A stretch of 64,000 nt of DNA from NCBI GenBank assembly GCA_963779615.1, contig CAVZZA010000003.1, forward strand, positions 320,001 through 384,000. Direction: 5' to 3'. Below, one piece after another: positions 50,495 to 63,056 of this stretch. This DNA is from an uncultured Nitrososphaeraceae archaeon (GTDB taxonomy: Archaea; Thermoproteota; Nitrososphaeria; Nitrososphaerales; Nitrososphaeraceae). The position numbers and the translations under genes were made by a program. Within the stretch, counting starts at the first letter, position 1; each line of letters starts with the position of its first letter. The notes under the pieces are model-generated. The model saw nothing but the letters and a program-made list of their open reading frames with translations, was not told the DNA's origin and made no database searches.

Positions 50495-51706
50495 CTAGGC
50501 GGGCCTTCCATAGGCGTTGGTTACTGTGCATGTGGCCGCCTGTCCCGCGTTATTTATTGTGCCGTTGCACCCTTCCGAAAATGTCGTTGTGAGGGGGGCT
50601 ATCACCGAGACGGTGTCACCAGCAGAGTTTGCCACATACAAAAACCCGTTGTCTTCATTAAAGGTGATGCCTCTTGGAGCGTTTCCCACGGGTATGGGTG
50701 AGCCCACAACAGTGTTTGTTGTGCCGTCTATCACGGAGACGGTGTCACTAATCAGGTTTGTCACGTATAAGAAACCGTTGTCTGGGTTGAAGGCGATGCC
50801 AATTGGAGTGTCTCCCACAGGTATTGGAGACCCAACAACCGTGTTTGTTGTGCCGTCTATCACGGAGACGGTGTCATCATCAGCGTTAGCCACATACAAA
50901 AACCCGTTGTCTGGGTTGAAGGCGATGCCAATTGGGTTGTTTCCCACAGGTATGGGAGACCCAACAACCGTGTTTGTTGTGCCGTCTATCACGGAGACGG
51001 TGTCAAAAATAGAGTTTGTCACGTACAGATTGCCGTTGATGGGGTTGAAGGCGATGCCTCTTGGATTGTTTCCCACAGGTATAGTATCTATAACAAATCC
51101 AGGCGGTGCGTTACTCTCCATTATATGGTATGTAACAGGGAATGGAGGGTTTATCGTCAGTGGTGTTCCGCTCTCTGAGCCATCAAAGGAGAGAGAGGAC
51201 CCGTTGCCTGTGGTTGCGGTGATGTTAAATGTGTTGGCGGTGGGACATTCAACCATAGTAGAAGCAAAATTACAGACGACATGTTTGGCTACTGTCAAAG
51301 TACTTGTTGTTGGTGTTGGTGTTGGTGTTGGTGCTGTTCCGTTCCCCGCTGTTTGTGGTGTTGGTGTTGTTGATAACGCAGGTTGCTGCTGTTGTTGGAT
51401 GTTTTTGCTCTGGTCGTTAAAGCCTGATGCTTCATTGTCTTTTCCTGTTATTTGCTCACCTTCATTTGCCTGCTCGCAACCGTCAGGCCTATAGCATAAG
51501 TCATCTTGATCCAAATGCTGATTTGAGCGCTCTGACTTAGAGTCTATGTCCTTGTGTATGCTGTCTTTGTAGTCTTTGGTGGTTTTATGATCGCCATTGT
51601 CACCAGCGACGGCGGCGGCATAAGACTACACCGGAGCCAGGTTTGGCCCACTGACCAGCAAAGATGTTAATGAAGATAATATCAACAGAATCTGCAAAAT
51701 GCTCAT
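50495..51706 (-). pseudogene. secreted YVTN/YncE beta-propeller repeat protein with in-frame TAG (51626-51628) after the signal peptide
   Basis: About four 43-aa repeats [23 protein letters not shown]...[16 protein letters not shown]; upstream in-frame MSILQILLILSSLTSLLVSGPNLAPV*SYAAA. Confidence 0.8.
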
Positions 51707-58295: not shown

Positions 58296-58583
58296 TCAAA
58301 GAGCACATAAAGTATTTGTTTGGGATTTTAATTTAAATTGTATAACACATCGATTATCAGAAAGCAAATAGAGATTGGGCCCATCCTTCGTAACCGCAAT
58401 TATCTTGAAGGAATTAACAACTCTATCAACAAATAAATCAAAAACCATGTTACAAGTCAATATCTCAAAAAATGTTAGGTTCCTTCCGGTTTTCGGGTCT
58501 TTGAGGTTAAGTGACAAGTCATCATAATCAAATTCATAGTAAAAATCAGGATTTTTAAAGAAATAATTTATTTGAGGCACCAA
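58296..58583 (-). CDS. hypothetical protein
   Basis: 95-aa ORF, no motif. Confidence 0.45.
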   Translation of the reverse strand: MVPQINYFFKNPDFYYEFDYDDLSLNLKDPKTGRNLTFFEILTCNMVFDLFVDRVVNSFKIIAVTKDGPNLYLLSDNRCVIQFKLKSQTNTLCAL

Positions 58584-59264
58584 ACTTCATATCTATTTTC
58601 TTTATTAAAAATAGCGATAGAAACTACAATTCACTTGATAGACTGATTTTTTAGTGTAATTTATTAGATTCCGGTTTGTTTCTCATTTTCTCCTATAACA
58701 ACATTCAAGTCAATTTTATGACTGTCATCCCAACATCAGTAAATAATAATTCATGGAGATTTTTAACAACATACAACCTGATAGAGAAAAGGTTATTCCG
58801 TCTTGCATTTGACATTTACAATGCAATTTATTGCGATAAACTTAAAGCATCCAGATCATTTTAAAAGTTTACTTTTATTTTGATACCGTTATTCAACATG
58901 CATTCATTTAACTTAAGCCATATCAATATTAGTTATCGAGATAAAACACATATTTTCATTCGACCAGTATTTCACATTAATTAACAACAGATGAACAATA
59001 CAAAAAGAAAAAAAGGTGGCTTCGGAAATTGAGTCATGTTACCCCAATGATATGACATAAAAGAAAGATGACCGAACTTATTCGTAATATTCCTCTTTTA
59101 TGTTAAAGAATAACATCAAAATTTTTACATATAAAATGGGGGATTTAGATTATGGGTGGATGTTACAAAGGTGACTCGATTTCCCTCACTCACTTTCTGC
59201 AAATTAGTAACTTTACTTTATTTAATTAACTCAAAAAAACATATGGCGTGGGTCAAGCGAATAT

Positions 59265-60017
59265 CTATAACGAAATCCTCATCACAGCAACACCAGCACT
59301 ATTGCTTGAATCGGCTCCACTACCACCATCATCAGTAGCAGCAGGCTTGAGAGAATTGGACTCCTCCTGACTACTGGCAGGCTTGAGAGAATTGGACTCC
59401 TCCTGACTACTGGCAGGCTTTAAAACACTTGCCTGACAGGATTGCTTATTGCCATATTTATCAGTGTCCTGAATCACTTTAATGCATCCTGTGTATGTGT
59501 CACCTATATCCAAAAGACCTTTACCAATCTTCAATGGAACAGATATAAGCCCATTGTTATCATCCTCAGGGTCAAGCAGTGGTACTGGATTAAAGGTTTT
59601 TGATATTTCCTGACCAGTCTTTGTTGTTATCCATACCTTGACCTTTATGGTTGAGTGGTCTATTCCGTCTATCTTCATCACAACGTCTGTGGAATTCTCT
59701 CCTGCCGCTGTCTTGTCCTCATTCAGATTGGTACTGCTTTGATCGTTAAACCCAACCACTTTGTTGTCACTGCCCGCTGCAGCTTGGTCCTCATTGACCT
59801 GCTTGCAGATGTCATCGGATACATCACACGAATTGCCCTGGCCGCCCTTTGCGATGTTTATGGGACCTTTTTCTTGCCCTGTATCTCCAATATCAAAAGA
59901 GGTAACTCCATTTGTAGAGGGTAAAGTCATTACGGAAAACACAGAGACTAAGGTTAATGATAACAGTGTAAATGTAGCATATGATTTTACTGTTTTATTG
60001 ATTGTTTTCACTTTCAC
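59265..60017 (-). CDS. secreted protein with C-x5-C...GFNDQS motif and Ser-rich tail
   Basis: Signal/TM N-terminus; CDVSDDICKQVNEDQAAAGSDNKVVGFNDQSSTN. Confidence 0.8.
   Translation of the reverse strand: MKVKTINKTVKSYATFTLLSLTLVSVFSVMTLPSTNGVTSFDIGDTGQEKGPINIAKGGQGNSCDVSDDICKQVNEDQAAAGSDNKVVGFNDQSSTNLNEDKTAAGENSTDVVMKIDGIDHSTIKVKVWITTKTGQEISKTFNPVPLLDPEDDNNGLISVPLKIGKGLLDIGDTYTGCIKVIQDTDKYGNKQSCQASVLKPASSQEESNSLKPASSQEESNSLKPAATDDGGSGADSSNSAGVAVMRISL
59341..59420. repeat. 36-bp coding tandem repeat x2.2 (KPASSQEESNSL)
   Basis: GCAGGCTTGAGAGAATTGGACTCCTCCTGACTACTG repeated exactly. Confidence 0.9.
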
Positions 60018-60759
60018 CTACCATCTTCATATTTAATATTTATAGGCACTGGATGTTTGTTATTTAGAAAGGCTATCAACATTTTCTACTGTTGCAGATG
60101 ATGAAGTTGCCACATTAGATAAAATACCAAGGGTAGTAATATCAAGAAATAATTTGATTCGATTTTGAATATGAAATCACTCCTTTTCTTTTTTCATAAT
60201 AGAAAATAAACATCAAAGTTATCTCCTGGGCAATAGCAATGTATGTTGAAGTCGCACATGTGAAGTTTGATGATATTATTTTAAAATCAAAGTAAAGGTG
60301 AATGTACGCATTTTAATACGCCACTCCGCACTTATTGTAAACATGAAATGCCTCATCTTCTTTATTTAACTCATATTCCTTTTTACCATACTAGGCCACC
60401 ACCATAATTCCAAAAAATCATACAAAAAAGAAATATCTCCCCACTTATATGAAGAAATTTGGTTGATATATGGCAGGACCAAATTGTTATCAACAATGGA
60501 TTTACCCAATGCAGTACAAGAAAATCGTTATAGGATATTATTTGTTGCCCTATAGGGATTTAGTAGATTACCAAATCTCCATTTGATGATGAACAATAGT
60601 TCAACTATAAACAAATCAGACAAAGGAAGATTTTATTGCCAATAAAGTTGATATTTGGAAAAAGGTAGACGCAGAAACAAAAAATGAATTTATCCATTCC
60701 AAATATTACTTAACAGGCATTTTAAAACAAAAGATAGTTATTTTATTTTTCAAGTTGTT

Positions 60760-61163
60760 GGTCACAATGGCAATGGCAGGTCACAATGGCAATGGCAGGT
60801 CACAATGGCAATGGCAGGTCACAATGGCAATGGCAGGTCACAATGGCAATGGCAGGTCACAATGGCAATGGCAGGTCACAATGGCAATGGCAGGTCACAA
60901 TGGCAATGGCAGGTCACAATGGCAATGGCAGGTCACAATGGCAATGGCAGGTCACAATGGCAATGGCAGGTCACAATGGCAATGGCAGGTCACAATGGCA
61001 ATGGCAGGTCACAATGGCAATGGCAGGTCACAATGGCAATGGCAGGTCACAATGGCAATGGCAGGTCACAATGGCAATGGCAGGTCACAATGGCAATGGC
61101 AGGTCACAATGGCAATGGCAGGTCACAATGGCAATGGCAGGTCACAATGGCAATGGCAGGTCA
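60760..61163. repeat. perfect tandem array, 19-bp unit GGTCACAATGGCAATGGCA x21 plus 5 bp
   Basis: Read directly; no variant units or spacers. Confidence 0.97.
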
Positions 61164-61446
61164 ATCAGAGTATGTATATACACAATTAGCATATAAAGAA
61201 AAAGCAATACGGAACTTCTCCATCGCCAAAAGTTTTATACACTAGTAGAATGAACCTGTGTACTTTAATACACCAATTATTAATGAATTATCCATAAGTA
61301 CATCTATGCAGGATTCAGTTATATAACAGCAGAAGAGAATAAGACTGGATATTCTCAAATCATCCACTTGAGGGATGTTATAACCACTATAACCACTATA
61401 TATAGGCTTCCACTCGAGGCTGGCACATATTTTTGGATTTTTTTGT

Positions 61447-61913
61447 AGCACACCCACCATGGCAGCACACCCACCATGGCAGCACACCCACCATGGCAGC
61501 ACACCCACCATGGCACCCCACCATGGCAGCACACCCACCATGGCAGCACACCCACCATGGCAGCACACCCACCATGGCAGCACACCCACCATGGCAGCAC
61601 ACCCACCATGGCAGCACACCCACCATGGCAGCACACCCACCATGGCAGCACACCCACCATGGCAGCACACCCACCATGGCAGCACACCCACCATGGCAGC
61701 ACACCCACCATGGCAGCACACCCACCATGGCAGCACACCCACCATGGCAGCACACCCACCATGGCAGCACACCCACCATGGCAGCACACCCACCATGGCA
61801 GCACACCCACCATGGCAGCACACCCACCATGGCAGCACACCCACCATGGCAGCACACCCACCATGGCAGCACACCCACCATGGCAGCACACCCACCATGG
61901 CAGCACACCCACC
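61447..61913. repeat. tandem array, 17-bp unit AGCACACCCACCATGGC: 26 full units, one 13-bp variant (61515..61527), one partial
   Basis: Read directly. Confidence 0.97.
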
Positions 61914-62324
61914 GTTCCATCTAACTCGACAATTGAGATGCTGGACCTGATGAGGTACAATTTATTCATACAGTCAAATTTGATTTAACATCAAGGATCA
62001 GTTGGTTTTCTAAACCCTACACTATTGAAACATAGAATGACCACATAAACAAGTAGGTTACTACAACTACTGCTTCTTTTTTTGCATGATTATATAGTTT
62101 TTTTACTGACTACTTTTAAAAAAGAGGTTTGATGTTGCTAATGAGTATAATTTAATAAAAACTGAACCTAATCGCATCTAACAACCACCAAAAATTTAGT
62201 TATGCAACTAACCAAATATCTATCACATTATTTTAGTTCTCTACACATAACAACAAAGTGGTATAGGATAAGAATCTATTAACAGAAAAGCTAAACTATC
62301 ATTGGCAGTCAGGTAAACAGAGTC

Positions 62325-63056
62325 ATGTATAGCAACGAAACAAGGGACCTAAACGTGATTGAAAAAGTACAAACCCGTGTTTCTCACACCTTAGAGAACA
62401 ATGGACTTTTTATTGATTTAAGCATTGAACACTGTAAAAAGTACCTTCAGAGGAAAATAAATTCAAAAACTCAGGTTGTGATAATGTATGTGGATATTAA
62501 CGGTTCAACAAAAATGGCACGCGATTTACCATCGTCAAAACTATCACTAATCATACAAATTTTTTCTCAAGAAATTAGCCTATCTATGACAAGTTATGGA
62601 GGATACATTTTAAAATTTGTAGGCGATTCGGTTATTGGTCTTTTTCCTTCAGAGCATAACCCATCCAAAGCCCTGGAGAACTCTTTTGCCTGTGCAATAC
62701 ATATCTTAAACATCATTAAAAACGGAATTAACCCCATTTTCACAAAATACTCTCTACCCCAAATAAATGTCAAGATCGGTATAGACCACGGTGACGCAAT
62801 AATTTTGGTATATGGAAAAAATATCGAATTTGCCCATATTGATTTAATAGGATTTAGCATCAGCATAGCTTCCAAAATCACATCTCTGGCATCCCCAAAC
62901 GAAATCATAGTTGGGCAAAACGCATACAACCACATGAAAGACGATCAAAAGAAATTTTTTGTTGATCTGACTTCAGAAAAGGAATCAAAATGGGATAGCG
63001 TAATGAAATACAACAATGATATGAAATACAGAGTCTTCAAATATCAAAAAAGATAG
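62325..63056 (+). CDS. class III adenylate/guanylate cyclase-domain protein
   Basis: YVDINGST, LKFVGDSVIG, VKIGIDHG, DLIGFSISIASK. Confidence 0.9.
   Translation: MYSNETRDLNVIEKVQTRVSHTLENNGLFIDLSIEHCKKYLQRKINSKTQVVIMYVDINGSTKMARDLPSSKLSLIIQIFSQEISLSMTSYGGYILKFVGDSVIGLFPSEHNPSKALENSFACAIHILNIIKNGINPIFTKYSLPQINVKIGIDHGDAIILVYGKNIEFAHIDLIGFSISIASKITSLASPNEIIVGQNAYNHMKDDQKKFFVDLTSEKESKWDSVMKYNNDMKYRVFKYQKR

Follow-up and report, generated by a model that had tools for sequence, protein, structure and literature searches.

A candidate dispersed promoter-like element edged by tandem arrays of variable length in Nitrosocosmicus-like archaea

Two tandem arrays bracket an AT-rich core in a 64,000-nt stretch of contig CAVZZA010000003.1 (positions 320,001 to 384,000; hereafter the window) from an uncultured Nitrososphaeraceae archaeon, and by sequence comparison this locus is one copy of a dispersed non-coding family that some Nitrosocosmicus-like archaea carry. 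Our preferred explanation of the arrays, to which we give about an even chance of being right, is that they are hypervariable minisatellites, born by slippage and homogenised locally, which border a promoter-like element present in dispersed copies. A sequence-only reading of the same DNA had proposed an undescribed repeat system. What survives of that proposal is an undescribed dispersed promoter-like module with satellite edges, while the term "repeat system" overstates the case. No description of this family was found in the portions available of the literature on tandem repeats in Nitrosocosmicus and Nitrososphaerales and on archaeal minisatellites or VNTRs.

The window locus and its paralogs in the same genome

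The features of the locus, in window coordinates, are the following.

59265..60017, minus strand: 250-aa ORF, divergent from the element, with a hydrophobic N-terminus in translation and matches to 0 Pfam families
60760..61163, plus strand: left satellite, 19-nt unit GGTCACAATGGCAATGGCA (Tandem Repeats Finder, TRF: period 19, 21.3 copies, 100% matches, score 808)
61164..61446, plus strand: AT-rich core of 283 bp between the arrays, 91% identical to C4:10423-10689
61270..61296, plus strand: conserved 27-nt motif ACACCAATTATTAATGAATTATCCATA, then a conserved stretch AGTACATCTATG to 61308 (pattern search, alignments)
61319..61326, plus strand: TATA-box-like TTATATAA, ~22 nt past the motif (aligned module sites)
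61379..61400, plus strand: small repeat of 9-nt unit TATAACCAC inside the core (TRF, 2.4 copies)
61430..61444, plus strand: two T runs (T5, T7) directly ahead of the 17-mer array, read from the sequence and identical in the C4 copy
61447..61913, plus strand: right satellite, 17-nt unit AGCACACCCACCATGGC (TRF: period 17, 27.7 copies, 98% matches, 1% indels, score 906)
62325..63056, plus strand: class III nucleotide cyclase gene (PF00211 adenylate/guanylate cyclase domain, E 1.9e-13)

Both arrays are intergenic, lying between the 250-aa ORF and the cyclase gene, and TRF reports three repeats in the window, with units of 19, 17 and 9 nt. The earlier description of two arrays in one orientation and 283 bp apart agrees with TRF and with the sequence, and the short repeat that had been noticed in the spacer is the 9-nt repeat of 2.4 copies. 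There are zero variants among the units of the 19-nt array, each of which parses into two AATGGC hexamers plus AGGTCAC, and the 17-nt array carries a 4-nt deletion in one unit. The rotated units ATGGCAGGTCACAATGGCA and ATGGCAGCACACCCACC do have ATGGCAG and CACA in common, as had been claimed; a common 7-mer, in any rotation and on either strand, is reached by 46 of 2000 shuffled unit pairs, which puts the resemblance modestly beyond chance.

The core appears to carry a promoter- or operator-like module, made up of a motif of 27-45 nt and a TATA-like box ~22 nt further on, and the box keeps this offset in nearly all module copies among the aligned sites. Oligo-T runs usually end transcription in archaea, and from their letters we infer only that the T5 and T7 runs could be a putative terminator of this kind. 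The 9-nt repeat is one unit shorter in the C4 copy and one unit longer in two contigs of a metagenomic DNA run (X1), where no other repeat was seen to vary.

The cyclase gene, rightly named as a neighbor in the sequence-only reading, begins 411 bp downstream of the 17-mer array on the same strand, and its homologs are present in 34 of 34 genus genomes. On the other side, the 250-aa ORF falls within ~3 kb that synteny shows to be absent at this locus in five relatives, and it has a paralog at C4:311897-312609. Domains of cas, reverse transcriptase or transposase proteins, likewise said to be missing from the surroundings, are found in none of the 15 window ORFs scanned against Pfam (7 between 41.3 and 63.9 kb, plus 8 further window ORFs).

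A second copy on contig C4, upstream of an Nramp-like transporter gene (identified from its translation), repeats the order of 19-mer array, ~286-bp core and 17-mer array at C4:10243-10783, with a core 90-91% identical.

C4:10706-10783: 19-mer array, 4.1 copies, unit differing from the window unit at 3 of 19 positions
C4:10243-10419: 17-mer array, 10.6 copies, 17-nt unit as in the window

The suggestion that the two arrays belong together is thus upheld, as they bracket one conserved core and the tripartite unit is present twice in the genome. Copy numbers differ between the paralogous loci (4.1 and 10.6 on C4 versus 21.3 and 27.7 in the window). Whereas the paralogous cores have diverged by ~10%, the arrays are perfect internally, and each variant of the 19-nt unit is fixed in its own array. 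Perfect arrays with locus-specific fixed units therefore point to local homogenisation, as slippage predicts.

The core is also homologous to a repeat family of ~1.3 kb with ~10 full copies in this genome, and it is the sole part common to the second copy and this family; in nhmmer searches with filters off, family homology is confined to the core. An extension of this homology past the 17-mer array was considered and rejected, as a search with filters off and E up to 10 gave it no support. The 17-nt unit is single-copy in the family (cataccc..acccaccatggcagca), with GCA on either side, and its presence once in these array-less paralogs argues that the array grew in situ from element sequence.

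The module and its arrays across the genus

The motif pattern occurs at 56 sites in 12 of 34 genus genomes, with up to 13 sites per genome, against 0 or 1 for a reversed-pattern control. A perfect non-coding array of at least 4 copies lies within 450 nt of 13 of the 56 sites, in 5 species; the share expected from the array density of the window's genome (G000) is ~5%, a comparison that overstates significance because the copies are kin.

Array-bearing sites among module sites: G000, 2 of 9; G018, 6 of 7; G011, 3 of 13; G045, 1 of 2; G019, 1 of 2
Genomes with module sites and no such array: G048, 0 of 11; G049, 0 of 7; five genomes, 0 of 1 each

This count leaves out a 9-nt unit of 3.2 copies at -82 in locus L044, a coding 57-nt repeat within a 284-aa ORF (L047), AT-rich or imperfect rows with less than 90% matches (L019 and L050), and repeats more than 450 nt distant (L027 and L123). 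With 43 of the 56 module sites free of arrays, the module alone is insufficient to force array growth. Where arrays occur downstream, they run on the motif strand and lie 93-434 nt from the motif start, as is the case at 12 of the 13 array-bearing sites and at two sites with diverged modules; at locus L109 of G011, the array starts ~40 nt past the TATA-like box.

In the comparison of units and copy numbers with related genomes, which had been suggested from the window alone, arrays in G018 range from 6 to 146 units, and the units of related arrays measure 6, 7, 19 and 23 nt. All 415 of the (AAGGCA)4 matches in G018 belong to 7 arrays, and all 7 lie ~296-434 nt downstream, on the same strand, of a module or of a diverged module with 3 mismatches. 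In one of the G018 arrays, blocks of AAGGCA change to ATGGCA/AATGGC, the latter being the hexamer that makes up two thirds of the window 19-mer, and in G011 one fixed base separates two paralogous 19-mer arrays. G018 and G045 share a conserved array unit, and the units AGCCTTG and AAGGCA stand at equal offset in two species whose cores are just 72-76% identical. At this level of core identity, a unit of 6-7 nt is expected to be unchanged by chance in about 1/6 of cases. Recurrence of the same units across species, together with perfect arrays of up to 146 copies, may hint at maintenance over neutral drift.

The ATGGCA(G) theme seen in the window is real: another species has arrays of (ATGGCA)n, (AAGGCA)n and (ATAGCA)n next to the conserved motif. 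Collected genome-wide, as the sequence-only reading had advised, the other arrays speak in part against that reading: ATGGCA is absent from the 10 other arrays of the window's own genome whose unit lengths are not divisible by 3. Nothing in the analysis favors one binding factor or one generating mechanism acting in trans.

Homology ends exactly at the arrays in all cases that could be compared, namely the two G000 copies, six G018 copies and the G011 pair; beyond the arrays, the flanks of dispersed copies are unrelated, and their left boundaries vary. At the two G000 loci, the intergenic regions measure 3.7 kb versus 0.4-0.8 kb in relatives and 1.2 kb versus 0.32-0.34 kb, and the relatives' DNA there is AT-rich and too diverged to place insertion boundaries or target-site duplications. 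The ORFs downstream of modules are diverse, including nuoA/B, rhodanese, redoxin, ABC permease, Nramp, cyclase and transposases of several families, and are often 300-1100 nt away; by rough calls, ~19 ORFs are co-directional as against 17 opposed ones, and at 18 sites no ORF of at least 110 aa lies within reach. We rejected a regulon on the diversity and distance of these ORFs and the absence of a strand bias. The diversity of the ORFs, with several transposase families among them, also led us to reject the view that modules mark the end of a single IS family.

Origin of the arrays

If the arrays are minisatellites, the GGCA-rich edges of the module would have duplicated in tandem through replication slippage between short direct repeats, for example GCA...GCA, and the resulting arrays would then have lengthened, shortened and homogenised locally through slippage or unequal recombination. 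Such local expansion, contraction and homogenisation would explain perfect arrays with units that differ between loci, and the ATGGCA(G) in both window units would reflect common ancestry of the element edges, with no trans-acting factor involved. Also in favor of the minisatellite explanation, searches for an RNA family, a conserved fold, a reverse transcriptase and an adjoining dedicated gene all came back empty. Hairpin-driven slippage was tried as a candidate and rejected, because six-unit arrays fold within ~1-1.7 sd of shuffled-unit arrays under RNA energy parameters. The exact arrest of homology at the arrays is harder to accommodate, as it suggests true element termini or breakpoints, and simple in situ slippage predicts otherwise.

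This last observation is among those that would be explained if the module and its satellites formed a new class of archaeal non-coding element whose ends are built or maintained by a dedicated process, which we consider unlikely. The process might be tail addition or recombination during propagation, or the binding of a protein that would silence, insulate or position the locus, and it would account for copies that end at arrays, for the seven module-linked AAGGCA arrays and for units that persist between species. A related and similarly doubtful proposal makes the arrays the genuine ends of a mobile element that is non-autonomous and has the module as its internal promoter; the mechanism that propagates the element would make or use them, much as retroposons have simple-repeat 3' tails and some linear elements have ends built of repeats. 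Homology that ends at an array at every compared locus with unrelated flanks beyond, tails that range from 6 to 146 units among copies that are otherwise similar, variable left boundaries and the much shorter intergenic regions of relatives at both G000 loci are all as this proposal would have them. Against it, 0 of 5 array-bearing or module-rich genomes (G000, G018, G011, G048 and G045; completeness 80-97%) gave a reverse transcriptase domain (PF00078), while 3 of 14 control genomes were positive; the diverged AT-rich DNA of relatives yields no resolvable target-site duplication or clean empty site; the transposases adjacent to modules in G048 come from several different families; and the 17-nt unit already exists singly in the array-less paralogs.

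The geometry of two direct-repeat arrays around a TATA-bearing core would also fit iteron-, centromere- or operator-like platforms for a protein that acts on the core. At 17 and 19 nt, the units have a length typical of iterons, a unit is conserved between G018 and G045, and the CACACC in the 17-mer resembles the ACACC with which the motif starts. No DNA-binding or partition gene adjoins either G000 locus, however, and no adaptor or partition gene was found among 56 ORFs near modules in relatives. In addition, the left and right units differ from each other, the units of relatives are unrelated hexamers and heptamers in up to 146 copies, far above known iteron sets, and the ATGGCA core is missing from this genome's 10 other arrays with unit lengths not divisible by 3, so that we judge binding platforms to be quite unlikely. 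Rather improbable as well is a non-coding RNA that has its promoter in the module and its body or tail in the downstream array, serving as a sponge or processed into ToxI-like units. The strand agreement of the downstream arrays and the short distance from box to array in G011 speak for such an RNA. In both the window and its paralog, however, the T5 and T7 runs separate the TATA-like box from the 17-mer array, the genes downstream encode a cyclase and an Nramp transporter with no resemblance to toxins, and the upstream arrays would be left unexplained.

Searches for RNA features bear on the same question. Rfam 15 has no match to the core at E up to 10 and 0 matches to five family loci, and the sole Rfam match is to a eukaryotic snoRNA model at chance level (E 0.75) and outside the element. 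A conserved secondary structure was not detected by RNAalifold on 7 cores from G018 and G045, for which the energy is -7.09 kcal/mol, the covariation term is positive and just 3 of 25 pairs show a compensatory change; fold z-scores are +0.55 for a plus-strand transcript candidate and -1.0 for the minus strand of the core. A 321-nt stretch of the core, searched on its own against metagenomic runs that held small shares of the query words, is matched by a core 90-99% similar in DNA run X1 and has no match in RNA runs X15, X16 and X18, a result that bears neither way on expression. Contigs from public metagenomes contain 0 exact matches to a dimer of the 17-nt unit and 0 to a 26-nt core word.

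Two further explanations have very little to recommend them. The arrays had been suggested, as an alternative, to encode frameshift-proof, periodic His- or Cys-rich metal-binding peptides, which we regard as extremely improbable. Open frames are what stands behind the suggestion: all three plus frames are open in both arrays, as are all three minus frames in the 17-mer array, every 17-nt unit contains an ATG, and the paralogous copy lies upstream of a metal transporter gene. The frames are open because the units contain no stop codon, and open frames are automatic for any such unit; the start context and N-terminus are not conserved, indels occur in the paralogous copy, whose lengths are very different, and the 6-, 7-, 19- and 23-nt units of homologous arrays in relatives would encode unrelated peptides. 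There is next to no probability, too, that the arrays are artefacts of a metagenome-assembled genome. Long perfect repeats assemble poorly, and exact copy numbers may be wrong, but the same architecture occurs on two contigs here and in four other genomes, and contigs of an independent DNA run continue from the core into both arrays.

Significance and comparison with known systems

Soil ammonia-oxidising archaea have large genomes in which much of the non-coding DNA is unexplained, and this locus reveals in them a conserved multi-copy promoter-like motif together with dispersed elements edged by satellites that are long and perfect and change fast. Even as plain VNTRs, the arrays would serve to tell strains of Nitrosocosmicus-like populations apart at high resolution, and they would call for caution in assembly. 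Should they be termini or binding platforms, they would represent an archaeal mobile or regulatory element of a new type, and its trans-acting partner could be sought through the motif.

Several known systems share part of this architecture. As in CRISPR loci, an AT-rich, leader-like region lies beside direct repeats, but the units here abut without spacers, measure just 17 and 19 nt, and have no cas gene among the 15 ORFs scanned. In type III toxin-antitoxin systems, ToxI consists of a few units of ~34-40 nt that are processed into a pseudoknot RNA, with an endoribonuclease toxin gene directly downstream. The order of a promoter (here putative) and then tandem direct repeats is the same, whereas the units of 17 and 19 nt, their tens of copies, the absence of a fold signal and the cyclase or Nramp gene in place of an endoribonuclease toxin are different. 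The parC site of plasmid R1, where two sets of iterons flank a promoter, also has short direct repeats on either side of a core, although the promoter here is inferred solely from a TATA-like box. Our loci differ from parC in that they have no adaptor or partition gene nearby, units that differ by side, tens of abutting copies and a chromosomal location at several sites.

Non-LTR retroposons and SINEs carry simple-repeat 3' tails, and the element resembles them in its promoter-like body followed by a very variable short-repeat tail and then unrelated DNA; it is unlike them in that the carrier genomes searched yielded no reverse transcriptase and that some copies also have an upstream array. 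The STRR heptamer arrays of heterocystous cyanobacteria are likewise perfect, short and intergenic and occur at many loci, but they have other units and belong to another lineage, and we know of no link between them and a conserved promoter-like module. BOX elements of Streptococcus pneumoniae are dispersed and modular, with tandem boxB units between conserved boxA and boxC ends, and thus are also dispersed non-coding intergenic repeats with variable tandem sub-units. Here, by contrast, the middle is what is conserved and the tandem units form the edges, the sequences are unrelated, and the host is an archaeon.

Prokaryotic minisatellites or VNTRs, such as the mycobacterial MIRU-VNTR loci, are head-to-tail intergenic units of 10-100 nt that are presumed to arise by slippage or unequal recombination. 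The arrays described here share with them head-to-tail units of 17 and 19 nt in non-coding DNA and a copy number that varies between homologous loci, but differ in being tied to one module, in being paired, in marking the ends of copies and in reaching up to 146 perfect copies in a relative.

Paired arrays at two loci

Two tandem arrays lie on one strand of the window, 283 bp apart, as the sequence-only reading had reported and as Tandem Repeats Finder and the sequence itself bear out; the AT-rich stretch between them (61164-61446), which we call the core, holds a smaller repeat found by the same program.

60760-61163, + strand: left array, 19-nt unit, 21.3 copies, 100% matches
61447-61913, + strand: right array, 17-nt unit, 27.7 copies, 98% matches, with a 4-nt deletion in one unit
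61379-61400, + strand: 9-nt repeat TATAACCAC in the core, 2.4 copies

Once rotated, the two units do share ATGGCAG and CACA, the 19-mer reading AATGGC-AATGGC-AGGTCAC and the 17-mer starting ATGGCA; by comparison, 46 of 2000 shuffled unit pairs reached a shared 7-mer. The hairpin potential of the units is not unusual. Run across the whole source genome, Tandem Repeats Finder showed that contig C4 carries both unit types too, in opposite orientation.

C4:10243-10419: 17-mer array, 10.6 copies
C4:10706-10783: 19-mer array, 4.1 copies

These arrays are 286 bp apart, and their spacer is 90-91% identical to that of the window. The 17-nt unit is identical at the two loci; the 19-nt unit is not, with 3 of its 19 positions changed and each variant fixed across its own array. 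The array pair is one unit, present twice in this genome. The 9-nt repeat varies, with one copy fewer in the C4 paralog and one more in two contigs of a DNA metagenome run (X1) than in the window.

The window is C3:320001-384000 of the source genome, which comprises 3.17 Mb in 5 contigs at ~36% G+C and whose host is an archaeon of the Nitrososphaeraceae/Candidatus Nitrosocosmicus group, called ammonia-oxidising because of an AmoC-like ORF in the window and the titles of archaeal records that contain the motif found in the core. This ORF (PF04896; 41302-41865, 187 aa) aligns only to positions 90-243 out of 245 in the Pfam profile and is possibly an extra or orphan copy of amoC; neither amoA nor amoB was noticed among the ORFs listed at 40-64 kb. 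A gene at 50495-51514 encodes an NHL/YVTN beta-propeller protein and is made of 129-nt repeats. Two genes flank the arrays.

minus strand: 250-aa ORF, no Pfam family
+ strand: cyclase gene, PF00211

The 250-aa ORF has a paralog at C4:311897-312609 and contains a perfect 36-nt repeat (59341-59420, 2.2 copies) with a duplicated peptide (LKPASSQEESNS...). About 3 kb within 58667-62358, including this ORF and the entire array element, are missing from the orthologous locus in five relatives; from the homolog of the 58296-58583 ORF to the cyclase gene, five species have 0.4-0.8 kb versus 3.7 kb in the source genome. At the C4 locus, the intergenic region upstream of an Nramp gene measures 0.32-0.34 kb in three species versus 1.2 kb. 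Insertion boundaries and target-site duplications are not placeable at either locus, the AT-rich DNA of the relatives being too diverged.

A dispersed element with a promoter-like module

Core positions ~57-283 match five further places in the source genome, all belonging to a ~1.3-kb family of about ten near-full copies at ~80% identity. This family is non-coding, has a higher G+C content than the genome, and carries a module consisting of a 27-nt motif and a TATA-like box.

C1:134937-136410, C1:186831-188326, C1:633536-635023, C5:543890-545370 plus six other loci: copies of the 1.3-kb family

No ORF is consistent across the copies; their right part holds a remnant of a short-chain dehydrogenase, truncated and on the - strand (PF13561, covering 163-232 of the 236 profile positions), and fragments of NHL/YVTN beta-propeller-like genes adjoin several of them. 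At the position of the 17-mer array, the 1.3-kb copies carry the 17-mer sequence only once (cataccc..acccaccatggcagca), with GCA on both sides, so the 17-mer array evidently grew in place, as tandem copies of a stretch of the element. Where the 19-mer came from is less clear. Searched with filters off, a family profile detects homology to the window and C4 copies within the core alone and none past the arrays.

The motif is the best-conserved part of the core.

61270-61296, + strand: motif ACACCAATTATTAATGAATTATCCATA, followed by the conserved stretch tATATaTCTATg
61319-61326, + strand: TATA-like box TTATATAA, ~22 nt past the motif

Most other species have a GACAC box ~10 nt ahead of the motif, and subfamilies have only ~70 nt around it in common. 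Among the 34 genomes of the genus, a degenerate motif pattern, allowing at most one mismatch, finds 56 sites, which fall in 12 genomes (13 in relative G011, 11 in G048, 9 in the source genome, 7 each in G018 and G049, and 1-2 in each remaining genome), and the reversed pattern has no matches in any genome except one, with 1. By BLAST the core has no match in 16 searched genomes of other genera of the order. Archaeal records with exact motif matches in a public genome collection include "uncultured Nitrososphaeraceae archaeon" and "Candidatus Nitrosocosmicus sp."; the degenerate pattern also occurs exactly in many Nostoc and Chitinophaga genomes (L052-L107), mostly with one or a few matches in each, which probably fall in a conserved gene or in an unrelated repeat.

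Since the ORFs near modules are diverse, on either strand and often 300-1100 nt away, the module looks like a candidate portable promoter/operator; around many of the sites no ORF reaches 110 aa. At one G011 locus (L047, C5:946000-952300), two inverted modules bracket ~2.5 kb, each within a longer inverted repeat whose 57-nt arms are 88% complementary, and one of them sits 182 nt upstream of a 284-aa protein made of 57-nt coding repeats.

Arrays beside modules across species

Of the 56 motif sites, 13 have a non-coding array no more than 450 nt from the motif, an array being counted if it had 4 or more copies, 92% or more matches and a unit of 6 nt or more: 2/9 in the source genome, 6/7 in G018, 3/13 in G011 and 1/2 each in G045 and G019, with 0/11 in G048, 0/7 in G049 and 0/1 in each of five further genomes. 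The source genome's own array density predicts ~5% of sites, and the resulting binomial figure of 2e-6 is overstated, as the copies are relatives of one another. At 12 of the 13 sites an array follows downstream on the motif strand, its start lying 93-434 nt from that of the motif; at four, an array lies upstream and ends 107-303 nt ahead of the motif. The units are as follows.

G018: AAGGCA, 6 to 146 copies
G045 and G018: AGCCTTG, 8.7 and 17.7 copies
G018, upstream of a module: ATAGCA, 37 copies
G011: two different 19-mers
G019: a 23-mer

In G018 every AAGGCA array is linked to a module: seven arrays account for all 415 matches to (AAGGCA)4, six of them (346 matches) sit at pattern-matching modules, and the seventh (69 matches, C7:607-1038) has a 3-mismatch module copy ~338 nt upstream. 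(ACCTCA)38 directly follows this seventh array; the locus (L167, G018:C7:338-1042) is a compound satellite of ~700 bp near the contig end, with (AGGCAA) in 78.8 copies and then (ACCTCA) in 38.3. The sole AAGGCA array of G045 has a 2-mismatch module 162 nt upstream, and G047 has a short, imperfect one without a module.

In one G018 array the AAGGCA units give way to ATGGCA/AATGGC blocks, which, together with the window units, makes the sequence common to the paired arrays part of a family-wide A[AT][AG]GCA theme. The sequence-only reading had proposed this shared sequence as the mark of a candidate undescribed repeat system; within the source genome it is limited to the two module loci and is missing from all 10 other arrays whose unit length is not a multiple of 3.

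Homology between the window and C4 loci ends at the arrays' outer ends, six compared G018 loci have nothing in common past their arrays, and a G011 pair (L108/L111) keeps 92-94% identity between about -1100 and the array end and is unrelated after. The arrays thus appear to mark the ends of dispersed copies.

Origin of the arrays and known systems

Our leading reading, to which we give roughly even credence, is that the arrays are minisatellites at the edges of a dispersed promoter-like element. If slippage-prone, GGCA-rich edges of the element seed arrays that then expand, contract and homogenise locally, this would explain perfect arrays beside a core diverged by 10%, locus-specific unit variants, the widely differing copy numbers of paralogs and the presence of just one unit in those relatives of the element that lack arrays. 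It accounts poorly for homology ending at the arrays everywhere and for units persisting between species, and for this reason three rivals are kept.

That the arrays are the termini of a mobile element is unlikely, if worth keeping in view beside the homology ends; no reverse transcriptase turned up in any of the five carrier or module-rich genomes searched, and positive-control genomes gave hits. The reading of the arrays as protein-binding platforms is rather improbable; no toxin-like or DNA-binding gene is consistently adjacent among ORFs scanned at the source-genome loci and near relatives' modules. We also doubt that they are a candidate transcribed repeat RNA: no known RNA family matched, and the RNA fold is neither conserved nor unusually stable. 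Contigs of three RNA metagenome runs gave no match to the core, which weighs neither for nor against expression. The peptide coding that the sequence-only reading offered as an alternative is very improbable, as is an assembly artefact for a pair present twice. CRISPR is ruled out: the arrays have no spacers, their units measure just 17 and 19 nt, and the scanned window ORFs include no cas gene.

The source genome has a second array family, with 11-nt units in 4.5 to 25.9 copies and related units such as CATTTGACCAC, CGCCATCTGAC and CATCATCTGAC.

C3:195179-195227, C3:827975-828094, C5:126989-127270, C5:261697-261755: 11-nt arrays outside the window

Each precedes, by ~95-100 nt, the start codon of one member of a set of paralogous genes; the 277-344-aa protein has no convincing Pfam or PHROG family, and we read its translation as a helix-turn-helix at the N-terminus plus a coiled-coil. 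These arrays and their genes resemble a DNA-binding protein gene with an iteron-like array ahead of its own promoter. Elsewhere, an 11-nt array (ACCATTTGACC, 4.1 copies, C1:527119-527163) lies ~125 nt downstream of a tRNA-like gene, an aragorn call with an unusual 4-letter anticodon. Tandem arrays in themselves are nothing new; relative to the parts of the searched literature available to us, what appears new is that they are linked, systematically and in a fixed orientation, to a conserved motif present in many copies in Nitrosocosmicus-like genomes, and likewise that this linkage goes with prokaryotic satellites as long as ~870 bp.
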